Source: a virus | Taxonomy: Duplodnaviria; Caudoviricetes | Strand: one strand, 5' to 3' | Length of the DNA stretch: 43,971 bases | IMG/VR virus record: IMGVR_UViG_3300036520_000013 | Span: 1 to 43,971 of that record | Made by a program: the position numbers and the translations under genes | Shown here: positions 707 to 43,971 of the stretch, in pieces | How positions within the stretch are numbered: position 1 is the first letter of the stretch | Layout of the letters: each line of letters opens with the position of its first letter | The notes under the pieces: model-generated | Database searches by the model: none | Seen by the model: only the letters and a program-made list of their open reading frames with translations | What the model was told of the DNA's origin: nothing

Positions 707-849
707 AGATGAGCACATTCTGGCGCGTCGTACTTGATCCAAGACCCGTACTGCTGACGCTACTTTCCCTATGCATAGCGCATGAGCTGGCTAAGCACCC
801 AGTGGTTTTCCCGCAGCGGCCCGTGGTGACTGAGAAGGATTGAAGATGA
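696..849 (+). repeat. 17-bp direct repeat AGAAGGATTGAAGATGA at 696-712 and 833-849 (variant at 504-517)
   Basis: Exact copies read from the sequence at consecutive gene junctions. Confidence 0.85.
709..843 (+). CDS. Small hypothetical protein (44 aa, MSTFWRVVLD...), not in ORF track
   Basis: Translated by hand; fills the gap exactly and is flanked by identical 17-bp junction repeats containing RBS, stop and start. Confidence 0.55.
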   Translation: MSTFWRVVLDPRPVLLTLLSLCIAHELAKHPVVFPQRPVVTEKD

Positions 850-1118: not shown

Positions 1119-1350
1119 ATGAATCAGGCGGGGCTAGCCGGAGACTGAGGCTCTTGCCGCGGCATCTTCCGCACCTGAGCTTGGCCACCAATGGGTTTGG
1201 ATCGGCAACGGCAACGAAGTCCGCACCAAGCCGATCGCAAAGCGCATCCAGATCCAGCTCTGCATAATGCTGGCAGGCTACATCCCCGCAATAGACGGTG
1301 ACGGTGAAACCTTCATCTCGGAGAGTGCCAAGGAGCCGATAGTCTCTCAT
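1102..1350 (-). CDS. Small Zn-binding hypothetical protein
   Basis: Start MRDYRLLGTL; C-x4-C-x-H and LRCGRC Cys pairs. Confidence 0.65.
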   Translation of the reverse strand: MRDYRLLGTLRDEGFTVTVYCGDVACQHYAELDLDALCDRLGADFVAVADPNPLVAKLRCGRCRGKSLSLRLAPPDSSIGMG

Positions 1351-1402
1351 GTGGGGAGATAGCAGGGCAGCCGGCCGGGGAGTCAATAAACGGCGGCGTG
1401 AG

Positions 1403-1594
1403 CTAGGTTGTGGGAGGCTGCGGAAGGTTGGCCGGGGGCTTGCCCGCAGGCTTGCGGATGATCTCGACGGGCTCATGCGTCCACGGGCCGTAGGGATCGC
1501 AGGCGAAGCATTTGACCATCAGCATAGCCAAAGGTCCGACGCGCTGCAGTTCCCAGTTCGCTTGCTTGCCGCACCGTTGGCACAGGCAGATCAC
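1403..1594 (-). CDS. Small Cys-rich hypothetical protein
   Basis: CQRC and CFAC pairs; start overlaps the upstream stop. Confidence 0.45.
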   Translation of the reverse strand: MICLCQRCGKQANWELQRVGPLAMLMVKCFACDPYGPWTHEPVEIIRKPAGKPPANLPQPPTT

Positions 1595-1971
1595 TTGCCA
1601 CCGCGCTCCCGCAGCCGACGCTCCACCTCGTCCGAGATTTCACGCTGGCGCTGCTCGTCCTCGACCCGATGCTCGTATAGCTCGGCAAAGCGTGTCAGGG
1701 CTTTTGACGTAGCCTCAAGATGCAGGTTGGTCCGCACCTGCTGTTGTACGAGCAAGCCGGTTTGCTCGATCAGCTCCTTGACCGGCCCCATGTCGGCAAG
1801 CTGGCCGGCAACGGCGAACTCTTTGGTTTCGGTCTTGGTGGGCTTCTTGCCTGTCACATAGTGGTAGGCGGAAAATACCGCGACAGCCGCCATGAACAGG
1901 AAGGTGCCGACAGTCTGCAGAGTGGGGTCAAGCCCTTCGATCACTGGCACGCTGGGATCGCCTTTCGTCAC
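1591..1971 (-). CDS. Single-TM coiled-coil membrane protein of the lysis region
   Basis: One hydrophobic helix followed by a charged coiled coil; downstream of endolysin. Confidence 0.65.
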   Translation of the reverse strand: MTKGDPSVPVIEGLDPTLQTVGTFLFMAAVAVFSAYHYVTGKKPTKTETKEFAVAGQLADMGPVKELIEQTGLLVQQQVRTNLHLEATSKALTRFAELYEHRVEDEQRQREISDEVERRLRERGGK

Positions 1972-2452
1972 CGATGTCTCTCCAAGCGTTTCGGACGCAC
2001 CAGACGCTTAGACCCAGAGGCAGCGGGTAAATCCCCGATCCCGAAGTTTGCACGGCAGAGACAGACATAACCACTTGCCACCAGACGAACACGGCGCCGA
2101 TGGCGGCAGCTCCGCGAACCAGCGGGGAATATCGAGAATAGGCTGTTTCGGAGAATGTGCCGTTGACGGTAAGCGCCAGCATCCAAATTCCGCCAGACAC
2201 CATGGAGATCATGCCCCAGGTGTCTTCATTCGTAATGCGGAGCATGCCTGCCCAAGCAGCAGCATTGCTCCAAGCCGCCCCAGGCTGAGCAAGTGTCCAC
2301 CCCCAATACATCCCCGTCGCGGCCATGGCCCATTCAACGAAGCGGGCGTCAAAATGCCTATGCACCCCTGTGATGACGCGAAGGAACATATTCTGTCTCG
2401 TTTGCGGTTTACCCGGCGGAAACGGTTCGCCCCGGATATTGGGTGTAGCCAT
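1928..2452 (-). CDS. Multi-TM membrane protein (holin-like), start uncertain
   Basis: About 4 hydrophobic segments; located in lysis cassette. Confidence 0.65.
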   Translation of the reverse strand: MATPNIRGEPFPPGKPQTRQNMFLRVITGVHRHFDARFVEWAMAATGMYWGWTLAQPGAAWSNAAAWAGMLRITNEDTWGMISMVSGGIWMLALTVNGTFSETAYSRYSPLVRGAAAIGAVFVWWQVVMSVSAVQTSGSGIYPLPLGLSVWCVRNAWRDIGDERRSQRASDRRA

Positions 2453-2524
2453 GCGGCGGAGTCCTATTCCGTCAGTGTGGTCAGGCCGGCTCAAGAGTTC
2501 CCGCTCCTGAGCTGGCCGCTTTGC

Positions 2525-2743
2525 TTACAACGCCGTGTTCTTGACGCTGACCTTGGCCCGATTGCTGATGAACGTGGAGAACACGTTCCAAGCCAGACCG
2601 CCGAGGAACATGGCCGAGCCTACAACGGCTGGCACATCGCCCTCAGTGATGAAGCCATGAGCAGCCAGGAGCATGCCACCCTCGGACAATATGCGGCGAG
2701 CGATCCAAGCAAGCGTGGTGGGGTTAAGAATGGTGTTGAGCAT
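2525..2743 (-). CDS. Putative holin (2 TM)
   Basis: 72 aa, two hydrophobic segments, basic C-terminus, directly after endolysin. Confidence 0.65.
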   Translation of the reverse strand: MLNTILNPTTLAWIARRILSEGGMLLAAHGFITEGDVPAVVGSAMFLGGLAWNVFSTFISNRAKVSVKNTAL

Positions 2744-2751
2744 GATAAGCC

Positions 2752-3468
2752 TCAGTTGAACGAGCGAATGATGAGGAAGGCCACGATGGAGAACACGATG
2801 GTGGCCACGATGAACCAGAGTGCTGGTCCCCTGGCAGGGGTCTCAGGCCGGGGAAGTGCAGGGATGGGCTGGGGATAGTGCGGGATGTCGGGCGGTGGCG
2901 GCAGGGTAACGCCCATGTCGGACGCTTGCAGTGCCGCTAGGAACTTGCTGGCATAGCCCGCAATCATGTCTGCCCGATCGGTGCCATTGATGACCCGGCG
3001 CATGTCCTTGAAGGTGGCGAAGTCACCAAGCTTCTTGCCGGTGAAGGTGCCGAGCATTGAGCCTTGAACCAGGATGCGAGCTGCGACGGATGGCTCCTGC
3101 ACGAGCTGCGGTTCTTTGATCAGATCAAGGCCGGTACGTTTGGACCAGTCCTGATAGTTGCGCCGGCCAGTGAGTTGGACAAAGCCGCGACCCATGAACT
3201 TCTTGCCATCGCCAGCTTGAACGTTGCCCAGATCCGCCCTGCCCTCATAGCGGTTCTGGGCAGTAGTCGGCCCCCATATCTCCCGCATGTACTTGAAAGC
3301 GCCAGTCTCGTGATGTGCAGTCGCTAGTATGTATGCGAGCTTGCGGGCGTCACCGTCGCCGTACTGCTCCCAGGCTTGGCCGATGGCGTTGAGGCTATCG
3401 ACCTGCGCCTGGTTCATTGCGCCGCCGTATAGAGCATTGCGCACCGACGCGAAGAACGCGGTGTCCAT
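2752..3468 (-). CDS. Endolysin, glycoside hydrolase family 19, with Pro-rich linker and C-terminal TM helix
   Basis: AYILATAHHET, GRGFVQLTGRRNY and RRVING GH19 motifs. Confidence 0.9.
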   Translation of the reverse strand: MDTAFFASVRNALYGGAMNQAQVDSLNAIGQAWEQYGDGDARKLAYILATAHHETGAFKYMREIWGPTTAQNRYEGRADLGNVQAGDGKKFMGRGFVQLTGRRNYQDWSKRTGLDLIKEPQLVQEPSVAARILVQGSMLGTFTGKKLGDFATFKDMRRVINGTDRADMIAGYASKFLAALQASDMGVTLPPPPDIPHYPQPIPALPRPETPARGPALWFIVATIVFSIVAFLIIRSFN

Positions 3469-3547
3469 GATCGTCTCCGATGTGTGAAAGGTTGATGCTT
3501 CAGGCCGCTAGGGCTAGTTAGGTGGCCGCACTATTGAGGATGACGCT

Positions 3548-5362
3548 TTGCCTACGCACCGTTCTGTCTGCGCCGCAGCCCTGCTTGCTGCCGTGATTTC
3601 TGGCCCTGCCGTAGGCGCTCCGCTTGTGATTGCACCCATGCTGCAAGGCGCTGAGCTTTGCGAGACCGCTGAGAAGCAAGGCATTGCGCCAGCCGAAGCT
3701 GAGCAATTGTGTCGCGAACTCGGGGAGAGTTCTGGCCCGCGCATTGACCGAATACTTTCACAGTTCGGACCAGCGCTATCGCCAAGTGGTGATTTCGCTT
3801 TGGGCTATACTCTGACCGTCCCGCTGCTCCGCTATTTCACACAGGCGAACGGTGAATGGAAGTTTGACCAAGAGCGGCTTGCCCATACTCTTAGTTCAAT
3901 CGAGGCAGTCAATAGGCCTGTTGTCGTCTATCTATTCTCGACGCACTTTGCGGCAGACGAAAATCCTGCCTCTCTTGAACAAACCTTAGCGGATGACCCT
4001 GCAAACTTGATGATGTTCTCGGACGGGCGCCCAGCACAAGACACCTATTTCCAAACGACTATCAATCCGTGGACGATTGCGGACATGAACGCCCCAATCA
4101 ACCAGTACCGGGAACAAGGGCTAAAGCAGGCGCTCGACGCCCTCTGCGCTCTCCCTGACGAAGCTCGCCAGCGCATTGTCGGCATTAATCTGCTTGGCGA
4201 AGTGCATCACTTCTTTCCCAATTTCTTTTCCGGCATGGGCTACGAAACCGGGATGAACTCGACTGACTATGGTCCGGCGTCGGTCGCCGCGTTTCAGCAG
4301 TTTCTTAGAGAGAAGTTCGGATCGATCTATTCCGCTAACCGAGCGTTGCAGACCACGTTTCCAAGTTTTGAAGCCATTCGCCCGCCGTCTAAAGATATCC
4401 GAACCGAGGGGCTATCCGACTTTACGGAACACCTTGACCCCTACGCGCACGGCACCTTTCCCGTTGGCGGATGGGCGTCCGGAGAGACGCCGCCATTCAT
4501 TCGTGTTTACCTCAATGGCGCCGAGGTGGCAGCTGGGCCAGCGACAGCCGGTCGGCAGGATGTACTTGAGGCGAAGCCGGAACTCGGGACCGCCAATGTC
4601 GGCTTTCGCTTCGATGTGCCTTTCCAAGACCAGCCGCCTGGCATCCACCGGCTTGTTGTTGAGGGGAGCGTAAATGGCTCCACTTATACAATCGCAGATC
4701 AGCGCATCATCATTATGAGCCGAGATCAGGCCGCGCCATCACAGATCCCATCGCATCCTTTGCCGGTTTCCCCGGTGATCGTCGGAGCGGCGCCGTTCTC
4801 AGCGTGGCTAGACATGCCACAAGCGGAGCAATCTTTTTTCTACAACCCACTTGCCGACTTGTGGCTACAGTTCCGCAACAAACAAGTTGCAGATTATGTG
4901 GAGCATTTCGCCAGTGTGGCTGGTGAAAGCTGCTTTGGTCGCGAAACTCTGTTCTCTCATCAAATAGCGCCTCGCTTCAATGCAAGCTGGAACGCTGATC
5001 TGATTGCCGTTGACCAAGCCTTAAAGCCGTCGCCTCTGCATGGGCTCGGCATCAACCTTTATGGTGGCGCTGCCTATGGCGATACATTCTTTGAGTGGCA
5101 GGCGCAGCACGGTCATACCCGATACGGAGTGCCTGAGTTCCACACCATGCGAGCCATGAGCCCAGAGGCAATAGCTGACATGTTCGAGCGCCACAAGGCA
5201 AGCGGCGCGGCTTACATTGCCCCCTATTTCGTGATGCTCACGCCTGAAACGTTCTTTTCCGAGACAGACACCAGTCACCGGCGCTTCATGATCTCGCCAG
5301 CCAATGACGAGTATGGGTCATCGTCGCTGTTCCGAGGCATTCAAGAGCTTATGAAGCGGTAG
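3548..5362 (+). CDS. Secreted clan GH-A / GH42-like glycoside hydrolase (moron)
   Basis: Signal-peptide-like N-terminus; FQQFLREKFGSI..AN..LQTTFPSFEAIRPP GH42-like segment; LLGE and GVPEF candidate catalytic Glu; opposite strand to late genes. Confidence 0.65.
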   Translation: MPTHRSVCAAALLAAVISGPAVGAPLVIAPMLQGAELCETAEKQGIAPAEAEQLCRELGESSGPRIDRILSQFGPALSPSGDFALGYTLTVPLLRYFTQANGEWKFDQERLAHTLSSIEAVNRPVVVYLFSTHFAADENPASLEQTLADDPANLMMFSDGRPAQDTYFQTTINPWTIADMNAPINQYREQGLKQALDALCALPDEARQRIVGINLLGEVHHFFPNFFSGMGYETGMNSTDYGPASVAAFQQFLREKFGSIYSANRALQTTFPSFEAIRPPSKDIRTEGLSDFTEHLDPYAHGTFPVGGWASGETPPFIRVYLNGAEVAAGPATAGRQDVLEAKPELGTANVGFRFDVPFQDQPPGIHRLVVEGSVNGSTYTIADQRIIIMSRDQAAPSQIPSHPLPVSPVIVGAAPFSAWLDMPQAEQSFFYNPLADLWLQFRNKQVADYVEHFASVAGESCFGRETLFSHQIAPRFNASWNADLIAVDQALKPSPLHGLGINLYGGAAYGDTFFEWQAQHGHTRYGVPEFHTMRAMSPEAIADMFERHKASGAAYIAPYFVMLTPETFFSETDTSHRRFMISPANDEYGSSSLFRGIQELMKR

Positions 5363-17779: not shown

Positions 17780-19110
17780 CAGATATACCCTCCAACGGCA
17801 GCCAGGATGTTTGCTTGGATCGGGGGCAGCGTAAGGGTCTTGCCCACATCGTTGAGGTGGACAAGATCAGTGGAGCTGCCAATCGAGAACGTTCCCTGCC
17901 CGTTGCCATCAATAGCCCCAGCAACCAGCACTTCGTCGTCGGCTACCAAAATTCCTTGCGCTGCAAGCGTGCGAACTTCGTTGGTGTTGAAGTTTCGCCG
18001 CAGACTATCGCTCGTCCCAATCTGACGGACCGAATGATCAACGGGCAAGATCGGCATGACGATGGGGCAAATGCCGTTTGCGGCGCAAAGGGCTAGGATT
18101 TCATGCATCGCAGCCCGCCATCCATTCACAATGGTTTCAGTCACAGGGTTGCCGACTGCGCCCATGTCGTTCAAGGAACCGGCGCGGAATACCAAGATGT
18201 CAGGCACCAGGCCGTAGGCCAAAATGTCTTTGAGGCGCTGCACAACGAGAGGGGTCGTCTGCCCAGACCATCCCTGGTTAGAATGCACCATCCAGGCTCG
18301 CGGTGACGCTGCATTGATCAACTCGCAGGCCAGCAGCACTTGGCTTTCGTATTGGTATGTAATGCCCGATCCCTCACCAGCGAGAGTGCTATCGGACAGG
18401 GACATGACGTTGCACACCGGACCATCATGGGTGAACACGAAGCCCGTCACCATTGAGCGGGAAACTTTGATCGAAGATGCGCCCCATGTCGCAGCGGTTC
18501 GCTGATCGCCTGACGTGTTGTGTTCACGGAACCGTGCCTTTCCAGCGGTTCGACTGTCCCAATTTGTCAGGTCAACTCCAGCTTTCCCAAGGATCGCCAT
18601 ATTCGTAGACAGCGAGCCAGTGAAACACCTTCCCGCGAGTAATGGACGAGTGCCACCGTCAGATCTGGAGACGGGATAAGCGGCCGCAACATCAGAGTAG
18701 ACGTGTTGAGCACGAGAAGCAGATGCAGTTGCGCCCACACGTGCGCCAGAGGCCAAACCATCTGAGAACGTCGCTGATGCGCCTGTCCACGCTCCGTCAA
18801 GATCAGAGAGCGCAGAAACAAATGACAAAGCCGCCGTGCAGCTAATGGGGTTTGGTGAGGTCGTTGCTCGACTTGCCGACAAGATGACACGCGGGTTATG
18901 CGCTGCCTTGTCATGACGAGCCATCAACTCATAAGCAAATTCCTGAGTTGTCCCAGCTGCTCCGGTTGTCTGCTGAGACTCTGTGCGACCGCCAAATAGC
19001 TGGATCGCTTCGCAGCCGAGCGGGCGGACGAGAGGAGCCGTTGCCTTACGCAATGCTGTCAATGCGTCTGCCGGGACGGTCGCGAGGTTAGCTAGATTAT
19101 TGCCCGCCAT
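17779..19110 (-). CDS. SGNH/GDSL hydrolase-domain virion-associated protein
   Basis: Blocks SDS(TLAG), GWSG, GSLND and DLVH. Confidence 0.85.
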   Translation of the reverse strand: MAGNNLANLATVPADALTALRKATAPLVRPLGCEAIQLFGGRTESQQTTGAAGTTQEFAYELMARHDKAAHNPRVILSASRATTSPNPISCTAALSFVSALSDLDGAWTGASATFSDGLASGARVGATASASRAQHVYSDVAAAYPVSRSDGGTRPLLAGRCFTGSLSTNMAILGKAGVDLTNWDSRTAGKARFREHNTSGDQRTAATWGASSIKVSRSMVTGFVFTHDGPVCNVMSLSDSTLAGEGSGITYQYESQVLLACELINAASPRAWMVHSNQGWSGQTTPLVVQRLKDILAYGLVPDILVFRAGSLNDMGAVGNPVTETIVNGWRAAMHEILALCAANGICPIVMPILPVDHSVRQIGTSDSLRRNFNTNEVRTLAAQGILVADDEVLVAGAIDGNGQGTFSIGSSTDLVHLNDVGKTLTLPPIQANILAAVGGYI

Positions 19111-19113
19111 GGT

Positions 19114-19245
19114 CTAGCTCCGGTATTCGTAATTGGTGGCATTGAAGCGGTAAGGAACGCCATTGAAGGTGAAGGCGAACTGCACCCCCCCGCCCGTTCT
19201 TAGGGCAGAACTGGTCAGGCCTACGCCGAGTGATAGGGACATCAT
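19114..19245 (-). CDS. 43-aa peptide with head-fibre-like N-terminus (MMSLSLGVGL)
   Basis: Directly follows the spike base gene; in frame with SGNH gene across TAG-ACC-ATG. Confidence 0.6.
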   Translation of the reverse strand: MMSLSLGVGLTSSALRTGGGVQFAFTFNGVPYRFNATNYEYRS

Positions 19246-33811: not shown

Positions 33812-33948
33812 AGAGCACCTACCCATACCCAAACGGCCACCGACACCATGTAAGCCAGGAAGCAAAAGGCCCATGCTGCAATTGCCAGACCGATCCAGGT
33901 CCAGCCACGAGGCAATGAGGTGGGGCGAGTTAGGGTGCGAACGTTCAT
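33808..33948 (-). CDS. 46-aa membrane peptide
   Basis: LPRGWTWIGLAIAAWAF...; ATGA coupling to DUF2312 gene. Confidence 0.55.
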   Translation of the reverse strand: MNVRTLTRPTSLPRGWTWIGLAIAAWAFCFLAYMVSVAVWVWVGAL

Positions 33949-34208
33949 TGTGCCATCCCCAAATTGCTCATGTAGAGCTGCAGAATGGCGTCTTGCTCGG
34001 CGCGTTCGTTCGGGTCCATCTTGCGGAGCTTGACGATGAGCTTCATGACCTTCACGTCATAGCCGCGGCCCTTGGCTTCGGACCAAATCTCGGCAATGTC
34101 GGCGCTAATCGCGGCCTTCTCTTCGTTCATCCGCTCTACGCGGTCTATGAACTGGCGCAGCTCGTCAGAGGCCACGGTGTTGCTGTCGCTATCGTCGCGA
34201 TAGTTCAT
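33945..34208 (-). CDS. DUF2312 / GapR-like DNA-binding protein
   Basis: ELRQFIDRVERMNEEK...EAKGRGYDVK...LYMSNLGM. Confidence 0.92.
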   Translation of the reverse strand: MNYRDDSDSNTVASDELRQFIDRVERMNEEKAAISADIAEIWSEAKGRGYDVKVMKLIVKLRKMDPNERAEQDAILQLYMSNLGMAQ

Positions 34209-34651: not shown

Positions 34652-34662
34652 GGTCAGCAGTA

Positions 34663-34724
34663 TGTGCATAACGCACACCTTGCCGTCAAGTCGAAATGCA
34701 CATACCGTCCGTGCAAAATGCACT
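34663..34724. promoter_or_regulatory. Right operator/promoter region
   Basis: Palindromes TGTGC-N5-GCACA at 34663-34677 and CGTGC-N5-GCACT at 34710-34724. Confidence 0.8.
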
Positions 34725-34725: not shown

Positions 34726-35319
34726 ATGTTTGATGACCGCCCAGATTTCGCAAAAAGATTGGAGAAAGCCCGCATTGATCGGGGCTTCAAGTCCGGCCGC
34801 GCCGCTGCCGAGTTCTTTGGCTGGAAGTACGACAGCTACGCCCAGCACGAAAACGGCACACGCGGTATCACGCGAGCTGCTGGCAAATATGCCAAGGCGT
34901 TCCGCGTCAGCGAGGCATGGCTGCTCACTGGTGAAGGCGAGAAAACGTCAGGACGCCAGGTGCGACTAGCCGGGTTCGTCGGAGCGGGCCAAGAGGTCTA
35001 TCAGTTCGATGACGGGAACGCCGGTTGGGTTGACGCGCCGCCAGCCGTTGAAGATGGCACAGAGGCAGTCGAGGTACGCGGCGAGAGTATGCTGCCCCTC
35101 TATGAGGATGGAACGATCCTCTACTACTCCAAGCAGATGCCGCCAGAGACAATGATCGGGAAACGCTGCATTCTCCGTCTTGAGGACGAGCGAACGCTGG
35201 TCAAAACGCTTCGGCGGGGCAGCGAAAAGGGGCTTTACACCTTGGGCAGCTTGAATGCGCCCGACATTGAAGACGTTGGGGTGATTTGGGCTGCGCCGAT
35301 TGACTGGATCAAGCCCTAG
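34726..35319 (+). CDS. cI: CI-like repressor (HTH + S24 peptidase)
   Basis: RLEKAR...YAQHENG...AWLLTGEG; VRGESM (Ser) and VKTL (Lys) autocleavage dyad; VGAG cleavage site. Confidence 0.93.
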   Translation: MFDDRPDFAKRLEKARIDRGFKSGRAAAEFFGWKYDSYAQHENGTRGITRAAGKYAKAFRVSEAWLLTGEGEKTSGRQVRLAGFVGAGQEVYQFDDGNAGWVDAPPAVEDGTEAVEVRGESMLPLYEDGTILYYSKQMPPETMIGKRCILRLEDERTLVKTLRRGSEKGLYTLGSLNAPDIEDVGVIWAAPIDWIKP

Positions 35320-35645
35320 CCTCCTCTTTCTTCCTTAATCCTGACTGTTGGAGAGTCCTGAGCAGAAGGCATAGGAGGACTAAGCCCCGTGCTTTGCAGC
35401 ATCCGAGGTTAGCCCCTACGCCCTCACGATCTTGACTGCCGGAGCCGCCCGTCGCTGTAGGCCGACTGGTGGAAGATCAGCCCCAGCCATTGACCGCACT
35501 TTACGTCGCCTGATCTGGCAACGGCAGACGCCCCTTCGGTCTTTCGGAGTGGGGCTTTCCTTTGTCTGCGCCCGGTGGTAGGACTATACCGCATCCAAAG
35601 CAGTATTCGGGTCGCCACCGTCTTCAACCGACCGGCCCTGACATC

Positions 35646-35675
35646 AAGCCCCATCCTCATCCGGTGGGGCTTTTT
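35646..35675 (+). terminator. Intrinsic terminator downstream of cI
   Basis: AAGCCCCA...TGGGGCTT-TTT. Confidence 0.7.
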
Positions 35676-35707
35676 GCTGCCCTGATTCGTAAGCCAATTC
35701 GCCAATG

Positions 35708-35760
35708 TGTGCAAGTCGCACATATTTCTGTTGCGCTCGGCTGTGCGTTATGCACATACT
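35708..35760 (+). promoter_or_regulatory. Left operator/promoter (PL-like)
   Basis: TGTGC-N5-GCACA at 35708-35722 and 35742-35756, the latter the exact reverse complement of 34663-34677; TTGCGC-N18-CATACT. Confidence 0.8.
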
Positions 35761-35828
35761 ATCTCCAGACGAACACCCCAGCCGACCGGCAAGCAGCCGA
35801 AGCGGCGACGATGGAGAGATGCAGACAG

Positions 35829-36398
35829 ATGGCAAAACTCACACAGTATTCCCGCGAAGCGATTGCCCGCCGTGCAGTGGCTCATGCCTTCGACCCCCGG
35901 CAGGCTGAACTTGCTGTCGCTGAGGATGCACTAGCACGGGAAGCCTACAACGCCACCTTCCCCGTCGATGAGCAGAAGCTTGTCGCGGCAGTGCCCGCAA
36001 ACTGGTTCCGCCTTGATGCTTGTTTGCAGTTCAATGTCGGCGGGCAGCGCATCACCCTGAACGTTACGGGCGACGGGCTTCCGGTTCCGTACCGTATGAA
36101 GGGCAGCGACTATGTCGGGTACAACTGCCACATCGTTGGCGTCATTGAACATGGCGAACTGTGCGACCGCATCCAAGCTCACGCGCAACTTGTCGAGACG
36201 GTGAAAACAGAACGCCGCCAAGCCCTCCGCGCCACTGAGGAAATGCTGAAAGCAGTCACCACCACGGCCAAGCTTCGGTTGGTCTGGCCCGAAGGCGAGC
36301 AGTTCTACGCCCAGTATGACGACAAGCCATCGGCTCAGCTTCCAGCAGTTCGTGTTGACGAGATCAACGCGCTCCTTGGCCTCGCTGTCGCAGCCTAA
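35829..36398 (+). CDS. Nmad5-family protein
   Basis: MAKLT...AVAHAF...; VTTTAKLRLVWPE motif. Confidence 0.7.
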   Translation: MAKLTQYSREAIARRAVAHAFDPRQAELAVAEDALAREAYNATFPVDEQKLVAAVPANWFRLDACLQFNVGGQRITLNVTGDGLPVPYRMKGSDYVGYNCHIVGVIEHGELCDRIQAHAQLVETVKTERRQALRATEEMLKAVTTTAKLRLVWPEGEQFYAQYDDKPSAQLPAVRVDEINALLGLAVAA

Positions 36399-36420
36399 CC
36401 TCATTCATCGGAGACGGCAG

Positions 36421-36720
36421 ATGTCCACCCTCACCCCCACAGCCGACCTACTCGCCGCCTTCGAGGCTTGCACCGACCATAACAGCTACTGGCGTTCATT
36501 CGTCGCTGTCGAGGCTCGTATCAACTACCTCGAACAGAACGGGCAGGCCCACGAAGGCTACGAGGTCCAGAAGCAGTTCACGCGGATCAATCGCGCTGTT
36601 CGCCATCGGATCGAAGCGCTTGCCGTTCGACCCTCATCCACGCTCGACGCCGTCACCGCCAAGGTCTGCGCTGATGTGTTCGCGAGCTTGGATCGCCCTA
36701 TCCTCATAGCTGCGGAGTAA
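36421..36720 (+). CDS. Hypothetical protein
   Basis: GGAG RBS before MSTLTP. Confidence 0.65.
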   Translation: MSTLTPTADLLAAFEACTDHNSYWRSFVAVEARINYLEQNGQAHEGYEVQKQFTRINRAVRHRIEALAVRPSSTLDAVTAKVCADVFASLDRPILIAAE

Positions 36721-36725
36721 GGGCG

Positions 36726-36995
36726 ATGCTGCACAGATGCACGGAAGCAGAATGCCCGTCGTTCGGCCAGCGCACCAGCTACAGCTGCGGGTGCCACGAA
36801 ACTGACGAGACGGTCTTGCGGGCAGCGCTAAAGGACTGCCTTGAGGCTCTAGACAGAGCGGCCGGCACATCGCTCGGCATCGCACTGAGTGGCAGCCATC
36901 ACCCTAATCCTGATGGTGCTCTGATGGAGGTTTATGAAGCCTGCCAAAAGGCAGCTTCGGAAACTCGCGCCGTTCTTTCTGAGGCCGCGTCATGA
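36726..36995 (+). CDS. Hypothetical protein
   Basis: Cys-rich N-terminus; operon spacing. Confidence 0.6.
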   Translation: MLHRCTEAECPSFGQRTSYSCGCHETDETVLRAALKDCLEALDRAAGTSLGIALSGSHHPNPDGALMEVYEACQKAASETRAVLSEAAS

Positions 36996-37246
36996 CCTCC
37001 CTCCCCACCCAAGACGACAAGGCAGAAACAGTCTCCGACCTCATTTGGATGGGCCTCGACGTAAGCCCGCATGAGCTTCTGACGCTGGCAGAAACCCGCC
37101 GCACCGATCCCGAACTGGCCATGAGGATAGCAGCCGCATCAGCAGCGCAGTACGTGCGCGGTCCCATGACGGAACTGGAAACGGCGCGCTTCATCAAAAC
37201 CTGGGTTCGCCCTCTCTCAGCAGAACGCAAGGAGGCTGCACAATGA
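36992..37246 (+). CDS. Hypothetical protein
   Basis: ATGA coupling. Confidence 0.6.
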   Translation: MTSLPTQDDKAETVSDLIWMGLDVSPHELLTLAETRRTDPELAMRIAAASAAQYVRGPMTELETARFIKTWVRPLSAERKEAAQ

Positions 37247-37344
37247 GCCTGCACGAACAAATGAAAGTAGCCGGCGAGCTGTTGCTGACCATCGTCATTG
37301 CCTCGCCCGTCCTGTTCCTCATCGGCAATTGGTGGGCGCTATGA
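37243..37344 (+). CDS. 33-aa membrane peptide
   Basis: AAGGAGG RBS; MSLHEQMKVAGELLLTIVIASPVLFLIGNWWAL; coupled at both ends. Confidence 0.55.
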   Translation: MSLHEQMKVAGELLLTIVIASPVLFLIGNWWAL

Positions 37345-37658
37345 CCGACGATTTCGAGAACTGGCGCGCTGCCTTAGCTGGCGAAAAGCGCATGGTCTAC
37401 GAGGATGAGCCCTGGTGCGGCTACTTCAAGCAGCGCGATAGGCGCGGTCTTTACCTGCACATGGCGCCGATCAAGCGCCCGTGGATCGCCTGCGCAATCT
37501 GGCGCAACGCCGATGGTGAGCTGGTGGCGGAACGCGCCAAGGAGCCGGTGCCGATCGACTGGATTTGGCCGCACTGCGTCAAAGACCCCATCCCATACGA
37601 GACCTACAAATTCTGGCACGAGAACGAACGCTGGCCAGATGAGGAGAAAGCCGCATGA
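37341..37658 (+). CDS. Hypothetical protein upstream of recombinase
   Basis: WRAALAG...PWCGYF...AIW...W..C...PI.YE.Y motif. Confidence 0.7.
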   Translation: MTDDFENWRAALAGEKRMVYEDEPWCGYFKQRDRRGLYLHMAPIKRPWIACAIWRNADGELVAERAKEPVPIDWIWPHCVKDPIPYETYKFWHENERWPDEEKAA

Positions 37659-38548
37659 GCAACGTAGCAACGATCAGCCAGCCTCGCCAGTCACTCATCG
37701 CAGCCATGGCCGGCCAGTACCAGATGGACCCGAAAGCCTTTGCCGACACGGTGCGCTCCACCTGCCTGCCAAAGGACGCCAGCAACGAGGAATTCGCTGC
37801 GTTCCTGATGGTGGCCAAGGAATACGGTCTGAACCCTATCACCCGAGAGATCTACGCATTCCCCAAGAAGGGCGGCGGCATTCAGCCCATCGTCGGCATT
37901 GATGGCTGGCTGAACCTCATCAACTCCAACCCGCAATGCGATGGTATGGAGTTCGTGGACGAGAAAGACGCCAAGGGCAACCTCGTCTCGATCACCTGCA
38001 AGATTTACCGCAAGGACCGCAACCGGCCAACCGAAGTCACCGAATACATGGCCGAGTGCAAGCGCCCGACTGAACCTTGGACCAAGTGGCCAGCTCGCAT
38101 GTTGCGCCACAAGGCAGCTATTCAGTGCGCCAGGTACGCCTTTGGCTATGCCGGGATTATCGACCCCGAGGAAGCCGAGCGCTCTCCCGAGGTGCTTACA
38201 GGCGAGGTCACGGCCCCGCCCCCACCTGCCGCGCAGATTGCGCCGCCGCCCCCAGCCAAGGCCGCTGAGCCCGAGCATACGGAAGCAGACGACATGGTTT
38301 CCGATGCAGCCGAGCCGTTCGACTACGAGGCGTTCCTAGCCGATCTGCTGGTCAGCCTCTCGACCGCGAGCGACGAAGCCCAGCTCATGGAGCTTTGGGA
38401 CGAGAACGATGTGGAGGCAACGCTGACCGACAATGAGCAGGCCCTGCAGGACGCCTTCGACATGCGCAAGGGCATCCTGGCAAAGCTCACCAGTGACGAT
38501 GATTTCGGGCGCGATCTCCAAAACCACATGGATCGCGACCGCGAATAG
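37655..38548 (+). CDS. bet: Phage single-strand annealing recombinase Bet (RecT/Red-beta family)
   Basis: YGLNPITREIYAF, PIVGIDGW, WPARMLRHKAAIQCARYAFG. Confidence 0.95.
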   Translation: MSNVATISQPRQSLIAAMAGQYQMDPKAFADTVRSTCLPKDASNEEFAAFLMVAKEYGLNPITREIYAFPKKGGGIQPIVGIDGWLNLINSNPQCDGMEFVDEKDAKGNLVSITCKIYRKDRNRPTEVTEYMAECKRPTEPWTKWPARMLRHKAAIQCARYAFGYAGIIDPEEAERSPEVLTGEVTAPPPPAAQIAPPPPAKAAEPEHTEADDMVSDAAEPFDYEAFLADLLVSLSTASDEAQLMELWDENDVEATLTDNEQALQDAFDMRKGILAKLTSDDDFGRDLQNHMDRDRE

Positions 38549-38613
38549 TTTCCCAACCTCCAAAGGGACCGGCGGGTCAATAGCTCAACCCTAGTAACCC
38601 GCCGGATTTATCG

Positions 38614-38826
38614 ATGACCTCCACACTAGACGAGCAGGCAGAGTATCTAACAGCCGTCCAGAACGCCTGCCGCAAGGCTCGCGATAGCCGGAACAAGACC
38701 GATCTTATCAAGGCCGCGGCGCTGCTGGATAGCGACCGCATGGATGGGCTCCCCCAAGATGCGCAAGTCGATCTGCACGTAGCTTATGGGGTTGCCGCCC
38801 TAGCTGTGACGGGGTTCGGGGCATGA
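38614..38826 (+). CDS. Hypothetical protein
   Basis: ORF after hairpin CCGGCGGGT...ACCCGCCGG; coupled to next gene. Confidence 0.55.
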   Translation: MTSTLDEQAEYLTAVQNACRKARDSRNKTDLIKAAALLDSDRMDGLPQDAQVDLHVAYGVAALAVTGFGA

Positions 38827-39245
38827 GCAAACGAGACAAGCGCCCTGCCCCCATCGTTCGCAAGACAAATCGCGGGCTCTCGCCAGTTGATGCCTTCTTT
38901 GCCGAGCAGATCATCAATGACCCGCTTGGGACTGAGTACGATCTGGTGAAGCGCACCAAGCGCAGCAACCCGCAGAACAGCCTCTATTGGGTGACGCTGG
39001 GCCATGTGGTGAGCGCCACGGGCAAGTGGCCGAACGCGGAGAAACTGCACGACGCTTTAAAGCGGGCCTGCGGGTTCGTGACCGTCAGCTACGACATGAG
39101 CGGCAAGGAATACATCACGACCGACAGCACTGCATTCGACGCCATGACGGCTGACGAGTTCCGCGAGTATTTCGATCAGGCGATGGAGAAGCTGGCAGAT
39201 AGCCTTGGCTTCGACCCGTTGGCTTACCTGCCGAGGGCAGCATGA
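38823..39245 (+). CDS. NinB/DUF1367-like protein
   Basis: KRSNPQNSLYW and STAFDAMTADEFREYF motifs. Confidence 0.7.
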   Translation: MSKRDKRPAPIVRKTNRGLSPVDAFFAEQIINDPLGTEYDLVKRTKRSNPQNSLYWVTLGHVVSATGKWPNAEKLHDALKRACGFVTVSYDMSGKEYITTDSTAFDAMTADEFREYFDQAMEKLADSLGFDPLAYLPRAA

Positions 39246-39487
39246 TGCCAAAGCCCCACAAGCTCATGAAATACGGCTGTGAGCCCAAATGCCCAAGGTG
39301 CGGCTATGTAGGCTTTGATGACTGGTGGCACGAACTGCGCGAGCGGGTGGGACATCTTCCGCAGGGAAAGCTGCAATGCGGTTCATGCGAGAAAACCTTC
39401 TTCATCGAAGGCGTTCCCGGCAATCTATTCTCTACCGCGTTCGGGCTCGATGAGACTGACCGGCTGTTGCGGAGTGTCGGGCTATGA
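39242..39487 (+). CDS. Zn-ribbon hypothetical protein
   Basis: CPRCG and CGSC pairs. Confidence 0.6.
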   Translation: MMPKPHKLMKYGCEPKCPRCGYVGFDDWWHELRERVGHLPQGKLQCGSCEKTFFIEGVPGNLFSTAFGLDETDRLLRSVGL

Positions 39488-39969
39488 TCCGCTCTCAGAA
39501 GATCATCAATGCCTCTCGCGGCGCACAAGAGCGCATCGAAGCACTTAGCATTCCCGAGCCCAATAGTGGGTGCTGGCTATGGATCGGGTCCACCAAACCG
39601 AATGGCTATGGGAATGCCAACGTAAACGGCAGGTTCACCCAAGCGCACCGCGCCTCGTACATCGCGTTCAAGGGGGATATTCCCGAAGGATTGGTAGTCT
39701 GCCATCAGTGCGACAACAGAGCCTGCGTGAACCCCGATCATCTAAAGGTGGGCACGTACAAGGACAACATGCGGGAGGCCAGGGAACGCGGAAGGCGAGC
39801 GTCCTACTACAAAGGCACGAAGCGCAATCAATCCGGCGCCGTGGGCGTCTTTTGGGATCGAGCCACACAGCGGTGGAAGGTGACCATAAGGCGCCAGCAC
39901 CTTGGCTACTTCGTGGATTTTGACGAGGCCGTGACGGTTCGCAAGGCTGCGGAGGTTCGCCATGCTTGA
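39484..39969 (+). CDS. HNH homing endonuclease with AP2-like C-terminus
   Basis: SGCWLW, AHRASY, CHQCDNRACVNPDHL, HLGYF..FDEAV..R. Confidence 0.9.
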   Translation: MIRSQKIINASRGAQERIEALSIPEPNSGCWLWIGSTKPNGYGNANVNGRFTQAHRASYIAFKGDIPEGLVVCHQCDNRACVNPDHLKVGTYKDNMREARERGRRASYYKGTKRNQSGAVGVFWDRATQRWKVTIRRQHLGYFVDFDEAVTVRKAAEVRHA

Positions 39970-40447
39970 GAATTTTCGCCGCGAGCCTATCCGCAGCCGC
40001 GCTTATCTCGACGGCAGCAAAGACCAGACTTGCGTGTTCGCCATTCCAGGCGTGTGCGTCGTGGGGCCGACAGTTGCTTGCCACCTTCATGATGAGACGT
40101 TTGGCATGGCGAACAAGGCCGACGATACGTCTACCGGTGATGGGTGCATGGCCTGCCATGACGCCATGGATGGCCGCAGCATGGTTCTCACCCGCGAGGA
40201 TTGGCTGTTCTACGCTTTCCGGGCGCTCCAACGGACCATCCGACGCCGAATAGAGCAGCAGATCTTGCGGCTCAAGCTAGACGCCCCAGCCAAGCCTAAA
40301 GCTCCAAAGCCGAAGCCCGATCGGGCGCCATCCCGGCCCATCCAGTCGCGCGGCTTCGATACCTCAGTGAGCCGCCCCATTCCCCAGCCCGTCGATCCTT
40401 GGGGCAAATCCCGCAAGGCCAAAGCCAAGATAGGAGCTACCCCATGA
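39962..40447 (+). CDS. DUF1364 / YbcO-like nuclease domain protein
   Basis: IRS...C...IPGVC...TVACH...K.DD....GC..CHDAMDGR. Confidence 0.8.
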   Translation: MLENFRREPIRSRAYLDGSKDQTCVFAIPGVCVVGPTVACHLHDETFGMANKADDTSTGDGCMACHDAMDGRSMVLTREDWLFYAFRALQRTIRRRIEQQILRLKLDAPAKPKAPKPKPDRAPSRPIQSRGFDTSVSRPIPQPVDPWGKSRKAKAKIGATP

Positions 40448-42066
40448 CCAGCACCAAAGAGGTACAGGGCGAGGCGGTGAGTGATGAACGGTTAGCGAGG
40501 TTCATCCAGACCTGCCGGGATATGGGCGATGCTGGTGACGGTAAGCGTTACGAGTGGTGGGACGGCCTTGCGAACGAACTCACCGAACTCCAAGCCCTCC
40601 GCTCCAGCATCAAAGAGGTACAGGGCGAGGCGGTGAGTGATGAGCTGCATGAAGCCGCCTTGGGTATGAAGCGCATCGTTGAGGAAATCGACGGAGCGAT
40701 GAAACACGGCACATGGCGCGACGAGAAGGGTATGCGCCTCAAGGACACGCCAGAGTGGGTGCGTCTCTACAACGCTATTTCATCATCTTCCCAAGCCCTC
40801 CGCTCCAGCACCAAAGAGGTACAGGGCGAGGCGGTGAGTGAGCTGGCGATGAAAATTGCCGTCCACATGGAAGTTCATTCAGCCCTGTCCAGCACGACGC
40901 GCGCAAAGGCTGTCGAAATCCAATCGTTACTTAATGCCGAGGCCATGAACCTCCGCTCCAGCAGCAATATAGCGGGGGAGCCGGTGGCTTGGCTGGAGAC
41001 GAGAGCGCTGCCTTGGAAATATGGCAGGCTAGACGAAGCAGAAATCGACTGGATTGAGGACGCTACCGGGAAGGTATTTGTTGAGCATGTCGGCCATGCT
41101 GATGGTCCGGCAATTTGTGCTGCGGTGAATGCCCTCTCCATCCCCCAGAACCCAGAGGCAGGGGAGCCGGTGGCGTTAGACGCATATGACGCCGGTTTGC
41201 TTGCATACTACGGCGGGGGCGATGTTGACTGGTGGCAAGACTACATCCGAGCCGAGCTAGGCCGCGCCCATGATCACTATGAGGCGCAGTTCGAAGCCCT
41301 CCGCTCCAGCAGCAATATAGCGGGGGAGCCGGTGGCAGCTGATGCCGACGAAGCCTACCAGATCGGCAAGCGCGAAGGATACGCAGATGCGGTCCAAGAC
41401 ATAGACCTGCTAACAGGTGGTGACGGAGAATATCGTTGGTGCAGCGACGGTGATCCAGAACGCCATTGCCCCGATGCTGCCGCGATGAAGCAGCGCATTC
41501 TTGATCGGTTCGACACCCTCTCCATCCAGCCCAGCAGCAATATAGCGGGGGAGCCGGTAAGTGATGAACGGATTTGCTTTGACCGAGCCATGGAGCAATG
41601 GCGGGCATCGCTCAAGCGCCCTGATCTTGACGAAGAAGCCCGCGTAAAAGGCGCACTGGCGGCATATCAGCGTCAGGCGTTCGCTTTGTCCGCCCTCCGC
41701 TCCAGCAGCAATATAGCGGGGGAGCCGGTGGCTTGGAGGATCGAAAGCAAAGCATCACCCAATGAGGCGTGGGAGTGGATCGAAGGCCGCGAGCCTACGG
41801 AATACCTGGGGTATGACGATTATATTGTCCGGCCTGTGTTCTACGCCATCCCCCAGAACCCAGAGGCAGGGATTAGCGTCACGGATGAGATGGTGGAGCG
41901 GGCCGAAACGCTGAGGATGCTATGCGGGGCAAAAGACGTCTGGACCGATCATGGTTCAGGCTTCCGGATTCACTTCGCTTTCGAAAGCAAGCAGTCTGAC
42001 CGCGTAATTGAGAGGGTATTTACGGCGCGCGCCGCTCTTTCCAGCACCGATGGAGGGAAGGAATGA
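40444..42066 (+). CDS. Mosaic modular protein (Ead/Ea22-like cassette array)
   Basis: AGGAG RBS before MTSTKE; repeated linkers KEVQGEAVS, LRSSSNIAGEPVA, IPQNPEAG separating unrelated modules. Confidence 0.85.
   Translation: MTSTKEVQGEAVSDERLARFIQTCRDMGDAGDGKRYEWWDGLANELTELQALRSSIKEVQGEAVSDELHEAALGMKRIVEEIDGAMKHGTWRDEKGMRLKDTPEWVRLYNAISSSSQALRSSTKEVQGEAVSELAMKIAVHMEVHSALSSTTRAKAVEIQSLLNAEAMNLRSSSNIAGEPVAWLETRALPWKYGRLDEAEIDWIEDATGKVFVEHVGHADGPAICAAVNALSIPQNPEAGEPVALDAYDAGLLAYYGGGDVDWWQDYIRAELGRAHDHYEAQFEALRSSSNIAGEPVAADADEAYQIGKREGYADAVQDIDLLTGGDGEYRWCSDGDPERHCPDAAAMKQRILDRFDTLSIQPSSNIAGEPVSDERICFDRAMEQWRASLKRPDLDEEARVKGALAAYQRQAFALSALRSSSNIAGEPVAWRIESKASPNEAWEWIEGREPTEYLGYDDYIVRPVFYAIPQNPEAGISVTDEMVERAETLRMLCGAKDVWTDHGSGFRIHFAFESKQSDRVIERVFTARAALSSTDGGKE
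40448..41871 (+). repeat. Interspersed in-frame direct repeat array (9 linkers, 3 related types)
   Basis: Copies at about 40448, 40590, 40791, 40950, 41138, 41294, 41516, 41692 and 41846. Confidence 0.95.
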
Positions 42067-42452
42067 GCCCGGTTCGCGTTCAACTGTCTCGCCGCAAGGG
42101 CTGGCGCATGCCAGAGAACACGGTGAAGGTGAGCCGCCCCGGCAGGTTCGGCAATCCCTTCCCGGTCAAGAAAGCCACATCAACCACAATGGGCGTGACC
42201 TCTGACGTGTGGATCGTCGGCACTTGGGAAGGGCCCGCTCTGTGGATCAAACCTTCGGAAGCGGAAGCCATCAAAGTGGCCGTTGAAGCCTATCGCGTGT
42301 GGATCAATCACCCTGCGCAGGCGACACTTAGGGCTGAGGCGCAGCTTGAGCTTAGGGGCAAGAACCTCGCCTGCTGGTGTAAGGAAGGCCCATGCCACGC
42401 CGATGTGCTGCTGGAACTGGCAAACGCGGAGCTAGACCATGGCACAGAATAA
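42063..42452 (+). CDS. DUF4326 domain protein
   Basis: RRKGWRMPENTVKVSRPGRFGNPF; LRGKNLACWC...CHADVLLELAN. Confidence 0.9.
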   Translation: MSPVRVQLSRRKGWRMPENTVKVSRPGRFGNPFPVKKATSTTMGVTSDVWIVGTWEGPALWIKPSEAEAIKVAVEAYRVWINHPAQATLRAEAQLELRGKNLACWCKEGPCHADVLLELANAELDHGTE

Positions 42453-42648
42453 GCACCATCGTCGCCTGATCAGGGACTCCCGCTTATACTGGTGCCCTGA
42501 GTGCAACGGAGAAACATTGATCCCCAACAGCAAGTCATCCCTTGGAATGACATGCGGGGATTGCTCGGATGGGTTTGATGGGCCTCTGCTGATTGTCGAG
42601 CCGATCAAGGCCAAGCGGGCAATGCAGGGCGAGAGGGTGGCGGCGTAA
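42439..42648 (+). CDS. Zn-ribbon hypothetical protein
   Basis: CPEC and CGDC pairs. Confidence 0.6.
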   Translation: MAQNKHHRRLIRDSRLYWCPECNGETLIPNSKSSLGMTCGDCSDGFDGPLLIVEPIKAKRAMQGERVAA

Positions 42649-42914
42649 TGGTCAAACTCGCAGCATCATCCCTGCCCGACTGGCCGGCCGCAATGAACCA
42701 GCAGATGGCAGCTGCCTACTGCGGGATATCGGTCGAAACCTTCACGGCGAACTGCCCCGTTAAACCGATCGTCATCACAGAGTCGAAGGCTGGCAAGCGC
42801 TACCTCAAACTGCGGCTTGACGAATGGTTGTTGTCGCTCGACTCTCCGCGCCCTGCACAGCGTCAGGGTATGGGAGCGCTCAGGATTGCCAGCCGTGAAG
42901 CTAAAAGGGCTTAA
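42648..42914 (+). CDS. xis: Excisionase-like HTH protein
   Basis: WPAAM...AAAYCGIS.ETF...LDEWL; immediately upstream of int. Confidence 0.75.
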   Translation: MVKLAASSLPDWPAAMNQQMAAAYCGISVETFTANCPVKPIVITESKAGKRYLKLRLDEWLLSLDSPRPAQRQGMGALRIASREAKRA

Positions 42915-43971
42915 CATCCGCAAGAACAGCGCCGGGGTATGGTATGCCTCATACCGATCCACGGGCGTTCTGCTGGGCAAAGCAGATGGCCGCGAAGCTC
43001 TAGCCGCGCTGATGGAAACGCCAGAGTTCCTGCAAGCCTATGTCTTGGCGCAGACAGGCAAGCGCAAGATCATCTACCCAGACGGCACGTTCGGGGCGCT
43101 CGTGGACTGGTATCAGACCAAGCCCGAATGGACCGGCCTCGCGGAACGGACGCAGGCCGACTATCAGAAGGCCCTTAACTTCCTCGAGCCCGCCTATGCC
43201 TACTCCGCATCGGAGATTGAGATGGCTGATGTTGTGGAGCTGCGGGACCAAGCATCGGACGAGCACCATGCCAAATTCTCTGACACGGTTGTTGCGGTCA
43301 TGTCGGCTGTGTTCCGCACGGCCTGCGATGCTGGAAAGATGAAGGCCAACCCCGCCCTTGGCGTGAAGCGGCTCTACAAGGCCGACAAGGACGCGAACAG
43401 GGCATGGAAGCCCCACGAGTGGGAAACGGCCCTTCGGCTCGCGCCGGCACACCTGCGGGCACCGCTGGCGATTGCCAGATGGGCCGGTTTGCGCGGGCAG
43501 GACATAGCCGTGATCAAGTGGGAAAGCTACCGCGACGATCCCGACATGGGGAAAGCCTTGGTGTTCGTCCCGCTAAAGAACGGCGAGGAAGTCGGGGAAG
43601 TGACTGTCGGCGTCTTGCCGCAACTCAGGGCGGTGCTGGACGCGATGAGCGACGGCGTTTTGCCATCAGCTCCGATCTGCCGGAACAGTCGCGGCATGAT
43701 CTACCCTTCGGCTAATGCGCTGCGAAAGGTTTGGCAGGACTTCAAGGCGTCGAAAGCCTTCAAGGCCGCCCTGCCCGATTCATCAGATTTGACGCTGCAC
43801 GGCTTGCGCGTAACGATGGCAAGCGAGCTGCGCGACAACGGTTTTTCAAACCGCGCCATTGCTGACGCCCTTGGTGATCTGAGCGAGAGCATGGGGCAGC
43901 GATATTCACGTGGCGCAGAGCAGCGCAAAACGAGCCTTCGGGTATTCAGGAAGATGGCAAAAGGTGCCTGA
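42886..43971 (+). CDS. int: Tyrosine integrase (start TTG 42886 or GTG 42895)
   Basis: GLRGQD, KNG, HGLR and QRY catalytic residues; NP motif. Confidence 0.93.
   Translation: MPAVKLKGLNIRKNSAGVWYASYRSTGVLLGKADGREALAALMETPEFLQAYVLAQTGKRKIIYPDGTFGALVDWYQTKPEWTGLAERTQADYQKALNFLEPAYAYSASEIEMADVVELRDQASDEHHAKFSDTVVAVMSAVFRTACDAGKMKANPALGVKRLYKADKDANRAWKPHEWETALRLAPAHLRAPLAIARWAGLRGQDIAVIKWESYRDDPDMGKALVFVPLKNGEEVGEVTVGVLPQLRAVLDAMSDGVLPSAPICRNSRGMIYPSANALRKVWQDFKASKAFKAALPDSSDLTLHGLRVTMASELRDNGFSNRAIADALGDLSESMGQRYSRGAEQRKTSLRVFRKMAKGA

Follow-up and report, generated by a model that had tools for sequence, protein, structure and literature searches.

Introduction

The closest described counterparts of the gene reported here are the Ea22, DUF551 (PF04448) and Lar-fusion early proteins of lambdoid and Stx phages, which, in the passages that describe them, occupy the same slot and are built of portable blocks (PMC10834534, PMC7093339). 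Our gene, P0001, encodes 540 amino acids (aa) and lies in IMG/VR record IMGVR_UViG_3300036520_000013, a 43,971-base provirus of the Caudoviricetes that we analyzed over its whole length and call the window. P0001 has nine very small modules, whereas the Ea22/DUF551-type proteins in those passages have three or four blocks. In other phages, modules of P0001 are fused to Lar, DUF551 and dATP/dGTP pyrophosphohydrolase domains. Passages of PMC10834534 and of a preprint (10.1101/2023.09.01.555870) treat mosaic domains, with neither repeated DNA linkers nor an exchange mechanism in them; the word "recombination" is absent from PMC10834534, as is "linker" from its preprint.

Several other phage systems invite comparison. 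In T4-type phages, PeSL elements are short repeated cassettes that act as crossover points for inserting, deleting and replacing small unknown open reading frames (ORFs), with mini-circles formed between nearby copies, according to the part of PMC2839356 that deals with them. PeSL, as presented there, is a promoter plus stem-loop between whole genes, whereas the P0001 repeats are coding, in frame and intragenic (PMC2839356); the P0001 linkers are not intergenic units of a sigma-70 promoter and a terminator stem-loop. By analogy, the P0001 array may work like PeSL shuffling moved into a reading frame. Rad52-like proteins (Red-beta, RecT, Erf) produce temperate phage mosaics by relaxed recombination, with exchange reported to involve small pieces of genes at a higher frequency than entire modules (passages of PMC3945230). 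These passages supply a likely enzyme and a homology length, but the homology they describe is scattered and diverged; they hold no repeated in-frame slot linkers, and "linker" and "intragenic" do not occur in them. Polyvalent proteins join many unrelated domains in one chain, have domains that also occur solo or in smaller combinations, and are proposed to act early in host conflict (passages of PMC5512222). P0001 likewise has between 2 and 15 unrelated domains, namely nine, and M2, M5, M6 and M7 are also found in proteins of at most 90 aa. In Pfam, PHROGs, NCBIfam and PDB sequences it matches none of the recognized enzymatic conflict domains (MPTase, SWI2/SNF2, methylase, GNAT, primase and others): where polyvalent proteins have peptidases, helicases and methylases, P0001 has domains of 39 to 66 aa without a family match, and "linker," "DUF550" and "Ea22" are absent from that paper (PMC5512222).

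Results

P0001 is an in-frame array of nine modules and nine linkers

An earlier note on this DNA, made from the letters alone, described the gene as a row of unrelated mini-domains joined by conserved repeats and listed eight linker copies of three types. All eight lie where it placed them (A three times, B three times, C twice), but the list was incomplete, as it missed a ninth, chimeric copy at 41516-41571 (Table 1). Exact matches among the copies measure 43, 41, 39, 37, 33, 30, 28 and 26 nucleotides (nt), and all are in frame. The copies are near-identical even at synonymous positions, as the note had said: in six linker pairs (overlapping, hence not independent), the same codon is used at 67 of 69 synonymous positions. 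When the codons of the same protein were redrawn 300 times, the longest exact repeat averaged 14.7 nt, with a maximum of 29, against 43 observed. The linker types are also interlinked. Types A and B have a common 5′ block of 14 to 20 nt, C1 ends in a 14-nt B block, and the chimeric B3 starts like C1 and ends like A1. The half common to A and B, which the note had already seen, occurs five times in the window, always within the P0001 gene, against 0.69 expected; none of 100 shuffles reached five. B1-M4-C1 and B4-M8-C2 have the same flanks.

Measured between linker cores, the nine modules are 39 to 66 aa each. Their best cross-match has an E value of 0.13; they are mutually unrelated, as claimed, and thus not degenerate copies of one domain. 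The single reading frame is likewise borne out, being open for 540 codons where the two other plus-strand frames have 24 and 32 stops. P0001, whole or per module, has no family match in Pfam, PHROGs or NCBIfam. The assignment of M8 to a recurrent module type scores 19.5 bits, equalled by 1 of 200 anchor-preserving shuffles; the M9 score is equalled by 36 of 200.

Integron cassette arrays have attC hairpins that flank self-contained ORFs. The P0001 linkers have no significant hairpin on either strand and lie in one continuous ORF; an attC-like structure was considered and rejected, as folding did not exceed that of shuffles. No promoter-like site was found in 35300-43971, and terminator-like sites (11 against 7.6 +/- 3.3 in shuffles) were rejected as not above chance. 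With neither a fold nor a promoter-like site, the linkers do not support integron-like or PeSL-like sites.

Table 1. Features of the P0001 array and of neighboring genes (positions in the window)
Feature	Position	Strand	Remarks
Mosaic early gene P0001	40444..42066	+	540 aa, nine modules and nine linkers; start codon inside the first type A linker
Linker A1	40448..40484	+	37 nt identical to A3
Module M1	40483..40599	+	one relative, 78%, at N-terminus of P0055
Linker A2	40590..40640	+	
Module M2	40639..40800	+	61/328 carriers, 14 in proteins of at most 90 aa
Linker A3	40791..40841	+	98% to A2 over 51 nt
Module M3	40840..40947	+	no relative found
Linker B1	40950..40992	+	43 nt identical to B4; 5′ half common with type A
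Module M4	40987..41127	+	one relative, in P0149 downstream of the M7 module (reverse order)
Linker C1	41132..41174	+	26-nt C core (41138-41163) and 14-nt B-type 3′ block
Module M5	41164..41295	+	108/328 carriers, mean about 70% aa identity
Linker B2	about 41294..41336	+	
Module M6	41335..41520	+	147/328 carriers; predicted mostly helical (pLDDT 64)
Linker B3, C/B/A chimera	41516..41571	+	12-nt C-type 5′ block, 28-nt B core, 12-nt A-type 3′ block
Module M7	41560..41691	+	11/328 carriers, usually N-terminal in those
Linker B4	41692..41736	+	
Module M8	41731..41835	+	weak member of a recurrent short module type following an EPVAW motif
Linker C2	41846..41871	+	26 nt exact to C1
Module M9	41872..42063	+	only end motifs recur elsewhere; core without relative
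Bet/RecT single-strand annealing protein	37655..38548	+	candidate recombinase (putative role); PHROG 252, E 9e-72; Pfam RecT
NinB/Orf-like recombination mediator	38823..39245	+	PHROG 319, E 9.5e-7
Small regulator preceding integrase	42648..42914	+	putatively xis-like, from position; PHROG 25900, E 7.6e-6
Tyrosine integrase at prophage end	42817..43971	+	

Single modules recur in other phages

An exhaustive search of 1.84 billion representatives gave 1,623 matches at E values of at most 0.001 and no full-length homologue of P0001 (0 matches at E ≤ 1e-30). Pooling the listed search matches (the best 150 of the 1,623 from the representatives, and from word-index searches 120 of 167 shorter proteins and 11 proteins of similar length) with genes from fetched loci gave 328 distinct carrier sequences. 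A fixed module order in relatives, which the earlier note had named as a sign against an array, was not found: 327 of the 328 carry one P0001 module only, and the exception, P0149, has M7 before M4, the reverse of the window. Multi-module proteins would top these searches, so their scarcity is informative. Carriers per module are listed in Table 1, with P0149 counted twice. A search of shorter proteins for the M3-M4 region returned 52 candidates, none at E ≤ 1, and no relative was found for M3 or the M9 core.

The note had asked for each spacer to be searched separately, and six modules (M1, M2 and M4 to M7) do occur in other proteins, some of them standing alone. Proteins of at most 90 aa hold M2 in 14 cases, M5 in 6, M6 in 3 and M7 in 2; in longer proteins these four modules take N-terminal, internal or C-terminal positions. 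Against the window, synonymous sites of the four are saturated (proportion of synonymous differences, pS, 0.69 to 0.80), and the nonsynonymous proportion (pN) is 0.13 to 0.24, over 68 comparisons that were not dereplicated. Judged by their sequences, the modules are portable domains under purifying selection, found alone or with other partners. Among 401 genomes of one alphaproteobacterial order there were 11 matches at E ≤ 0.01, two of them strong and each to a single module; phage and plasmid collections added 3 and 1 single-module matches. Automatic module clustering, which was too strict for the full vocabulary, gave 30 families, with 7 family pairs seen in both orders.

Partner domains were sought in 118 matches of the representatives search (Lar 6, DUF551 2, PRA-PH 1, Ead/Ea22 0) and in 48 hand-picked proteins (Lar 6, DUF551 2, dATP/dGTP pyrophosphohydrolase 1, RF-1 2, Ead/Ea22 0). 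Two proteins, P0110 and P0119, combine M5 with part of an RF-1 release-factor domain (E 1e-9 and 2e-11), which may connect this module pool to translation or ribosome rescue. A Novosphingobium locus has a DncV-like/SMODS nucleotidyltransferase gene of CBASS type (L014:6979-8127, minus strand) 2.6 kb downstream of a Lar-M5 mosaic gene. The surroundings of 32 loci (about 4 kb) gave 100 neighboring ORFs with 190 codons or more; an integrase family was present at 12 loci and an integrase or recombination gene at 14.

P0001 draws on the module pool of the mosaic Lar/DUF551/Ea22-like early genes, a class without a formal family in which order and combination vary. The N-terminal Ead/Ea22 signature is absent: P0001 has no Pfam match at E ≤ 0.1, no module matches below E 0.18, and none of 166 scanned carriers has it. 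Further traits of the Ead/Ea22 family are an influence on the choice between lysis and lysogeny and a tetrameric form with a central coiled coil. The DUF551/PHROG 60 domain is also absent from P0001 and present in 4 of the 166 carriers of its modules. The array gene does lie where Ead/Ea22-type genes lie in the operon, between recombination genes and xis/int. By position and module pool, P0001 falls among the mosaic Ea22/DUF551/Lar genes, though outside the Ea22 and DUF551 families.

Repeated linkers occur across the gene class

We collected 74 distinct module-bearing genes (loci L002 to L100), of which 62 were nonredundant; 42 of these were 450 to 1,800 nt long, and 20 were dropped for length. 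An exact repeat of at least 14 nt is found in 15 of the 42, compared to 9 of 246 mechanically called neighboring ORFs (Fisher p 1e-8), and at 18 nt the counts are 7 of 42 and 2 of 246. The repeats are in frame in all 15 repeat-bearing genes. In none of these does a copy lie inside the shared module, and in 10 a copy lies within 16 aa of a module edge. Four background ORFs have a repeat of at least 16 nt; by eye, two of them seem to belong to this class, and the other two encode simple-repeat proteins. At the protein level, among 164 proteins with 200 aa or more (P0001 included), 41 have a repeated hexapeptide, against 3 of 820 shuffles. P0001 leads in repeated linker sites per protein with 9; the next have 6, 5 and 5. 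The linkers differ wholly between lineages, and each lineage has its own set. The repeat-linker design is class-wide, with P0001 as its extreme case and, at 9 sites, most regular member among the mosaic Lar/DUF551/Ea22-like early genes.

Two observations touch on this design elsewhere. At L070:97-640 and in the related loci L065 to L077, an 18- to 25-nt repeat spans a ribosome-binding-like sequence and a stop/start overlap at successive junctions of small genes, an apparent intergenic version of the linker principle around M2-like genes. A module-bearing gene is also adjoined by another long mosaic gene, with internal 17-nt repeats of its own, at L021:5866-6645 and at L038:5541-7190; some phages thus have two racks of this kind.

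Related phages share linkers around unrelated modules

Natural swaps were sought in pairs of related loci. L005 and L047 have two shared linkers, of 43 and 33 nt, that are 100% identical. Their M5 alleles are located after different linkers and are 77% identical in DNA and 89% in protein, with a pS of 0.89. With identical linkers around a saturated module, the linkers must have been shared far more recently than the module that they flank. L043, the same contig as L005, was compared to L047 over positions of about 600 to 5000, where many islands of 30 to 60 nt (97 to 100%) with unrelated DNA between them run through the whole early region; the pattern thus also extends between small genes. L044 and L046 have four short islands (87 to 100%) around unrelated modules, plus a final module at 98%. 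L099 and L100 begin with an M7 module that is 98% identical and also have a common 22-nt island (95%); different modules follow each of these. Twelve M6 carriers have a common scaffold of up to five linkers, in which the M6 slot is constant by ascertainment. The slot before M6 has 5 types in 6 fillings, and the slot after it has 5 types in 7 fillings.

Product and gene neighborhood

The product's best match in PADLOC has an E value of 0.015. Profiles of M5, M2, M6 and M7 matched nothing below E 0.15 among the sequences of solved structures, and a fold search with the M6 model found nothing at E ≤ 0.001 among viral structures. The best ESM Atlas feature scores, 0.80 for whole P0001 and 0.82 for M5, lie below the reliable range, and the whole-protein model has a predicted template-modeling score (pTM) of 0.18. 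Anti-defence is our leading guess for what the modules do. That they are early, small and strongly conserved, and that some are fused to Lar or to nucleotide pyrophosphohydrolases, suggests a role in host interaction or anti-defence.

The minus strand of the window encodes terminase, portal, protease, capsid and tape-measure proteins. The plus-strand early operon follows the repressor and runs through Nmad5, Bet/RecT, NinB-like, HNH, YbcO, the array gene, DUF4326, the xis-like gene and the tyrosine integrase, which places the array gene (40444-42066) between bet and xis/int of the prophage. The phage also encodes a prohead protease and an S24 repressor. It has almost no close kin: of 10 of its proteins that were checked, 7 were the sole members of their 90% clusters. 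From the GapR-like gene (33945-34208, minus strand, E 1.6e-31), which encodes a DNA-binding protein, and from named module matches, we guess that the host is alphaproteobacterial.

Three further features of the window were recorded. The repressor gene is flanked on both sides by a perfect 19-nt inverted pair (34659-34677 and 35742-35760), likely the left and right operators. A 26-nt inverted match (85%) links a gene junction of the late region, 19097-19122, to the stop/start junction after the DUF4326 gene, 42427-42452, and a further stretch similar to this junction, 40434-40449, lies at the start of the array gene. A 604-aa ORF at 3548-5362 on the plus strand, opposite to the late genes, has no Pfam match and is a possible moron.

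Discussion

We think it probable that P0001 is an early accessory gene of a temperate phage whose near-identical linkers are short-homology crossover points for in-frame domain exchange. A Bet-type recombinase or the host RecA would act at the linkers, so that whole domains are added, dropped or swapped with the frame intact. A crossover within a linker would fuse the 5′ half of one copy with another copy's 3′ half, and such half-and-half products would explain the chimeric linkers (A/B, C/B and C/B/A). Exchange in a pool of related phages would keep the linkers of each lineage alike. A module might travel with one linker, either cut out as a circle or passed on when phage genomes in the same cell cross over, and the first entry of a foreign module into a slot could, at a guess, use weak homology at shared junction motifs. 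The product would be an early protein of the beads-on-a-string kind, each domain acting on host targets by itself. Upstream, the Bet/RecT gene ends 1.9 kb before the array gene, in agreement with the 2 kb of the earlier note, and the Bet and NinB-like genes share an operon with the array gene, which supports a role for recombination. Minimal pairing lengths of 23 to 27 bp for Red-beta and 31 to 34 bp for RecA are given in a passage of PMC3945230. Matches within linker types, at 26 to 43 nt, reach the Red-beta minimum, and the longer ones reach that of RecA. Repeats of this sort should delete modules as well, so that an array of nine modules implies recent growth or selection for keeping them.

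Several findings count against this reading. Blocks common to different linker types are only 12 to 20 nt, below the Red-beta pairing length, so crossovers between types should be rarer. Recombination leaves unexplained how a foreign module first acquires the local linker. No variant of the P0001 array was seen and no close relative was found, and the swaps described above come from other lineages with other linkers. In IMG/VR, the type A and type B linkers had 0 and 0 matches, and type C had one isolated 17-nt match and no true match. A scan of JGI metagenomes for the type A pattern, the one type scanned there, returned 6 loci: the phage's own contig (L009) and five with no linker continuation in the flanks. 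Across the class, repeats of 14 nt or longer are missing from 27 of the 42 module genes, and a single-strand annealing protein (RecT, Rad52 or Erf) lies within 4 kb in just 6 of the 32 loci, whose flanks are short. As for the product, no module matches a known function or fold in Pfam, PHROGs, NCBIfam, PDB sequences, PADLOC or viral structures, and an anti-defence-type partner occurs in a minority of carriers (Lar, 6 of 118). The earlier proposal of a module-exchanging array thus holds in part: the modules are separate and portable, and related phages swap them at shared linkers.

The array could also be read as a passive relic, in which the linkers stem from recent internal duplications, rare illegitimate recombination replaced the cores, and there is no role in ongoing exchange. 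B1-M4-C1 and B4-M8-C2 look like a duplicated slot with a replaced core, synonymous identity would then be a sign of recency and not of use, and P0001 linkers were not found in other genomes. We consider a relic unlikely: linker islands that surround unrelated modules in different phages are 87 to 100% identical, the 12 members of one lineage retain a single scaffold although the contents of its slots vary, and frame and domain boundaries are intact at all nine joints. The regular repeat-module layout, with an integrase 0.8 kb downstream and integrases within 4 kb in 12 of 32 related loci, could suggest a dedicated cassette machine of the integron or shufflon kind, with the linkers as targets of a site-specific recombinase, for example the tyrosine integrase next to the array. 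Such a machine seems very improbable to us, as the folding of the linkers does not exceed that of shuffles (12 folds, z −0.58 to +1.03), the three types have no invariant core and differ wholly from those of other lineages, and the integrase is at the usual place of a prophage integrase, after the xis-like gene at the prophage end. Likely no dedicated site-specific machine is needed, and ordinary Bet/RecA short-homology recombination at lineage-private linkers would suffice.

The linkers might act in the protein instead, as protease sites that release nine small proteins, which would be compatible with recombination at the DNA level. Four modules do occur in proteins no longer than 90 aa, the linker peptides are repeated as well as their DNA, and a prohead protease and an S24 repressor are encoded by the phage. 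Cleavage sites need no identical synonymous codons, though, and here 67 of 69 are identical; there are three linker peptides in this one protein and others in other lineages, and the gene belongs to an early operon distant from the head genes. We therefore give a polyprotein very little credence. The array might also have been put together by an assembler that chained fragments of several phage strains into one frame at the repeats. The record is metagenome-derived, and Logan contigs of the one run with this DNA break at linkers of at least 31 nt, so module order is not fixed by them; deletions between identical linkers of that length leave no new junction in assembled contigs. An artefact is nonetheless extremely hard to believe, given that all 10 contig records agree at 99% or more and show neither variant letters nor alternative joints nor dangling ends, that M4-C1-M5 and M6-B3-M7 each lie within a single record, that the gene sits in a 671-kb contig, and that proteins with 4 to 6 repeated linker sites come from unrelated data sets. 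The same contigs leave M3 without cover and have inner records at a depth of 23 to 38 against 41 in the flanks, which we did not use as evidence. The single DNA run that contains the gene is possibly the source sample; no RNA run containing it was listed.

The earlier note knew of no description of so regular a linker system. A literature search outside subscription papers and supplements turned up no account of linker arrays that lie in frame within genes of this class. The design is nonetheless common to a wide class of early phage genes, and domain-level Ea22/DUF551 mosaicism is in print in passages of PMC10834534; what stands is that P0001 is its most regular member. Crossover-mediated exchange in P0001 could be one instance of something broader, an idea we put forward tentatively and with more doubt than confidence: a widespread intragenic combinatorial system in temperate phages of Proteobacteria, in which private coding linkers serve as slots, pooled micro-domains move with a linker between slots and between phages via Bet-type recombination, possibly as mini-circles, and the products are customizable racks for anti-defence or host control, with P0001 as the clearest specimen and an already parsed set of candidates.

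Domain-level mosaicism is known for these early genes, and in the literature that surfaced, in-frame swapping is not tied to a DNA feature; in P0001 the joints are explicit. P0001 thereby opens to direct test the question of domain shuffling by phage annealing proteins at short homologies that are programmed. Its linkers also parse the protein into clonable units, strongly conserved phage domains of 40 to 65 residues with 1,623 matching representatives, which may be screened against defence systems.

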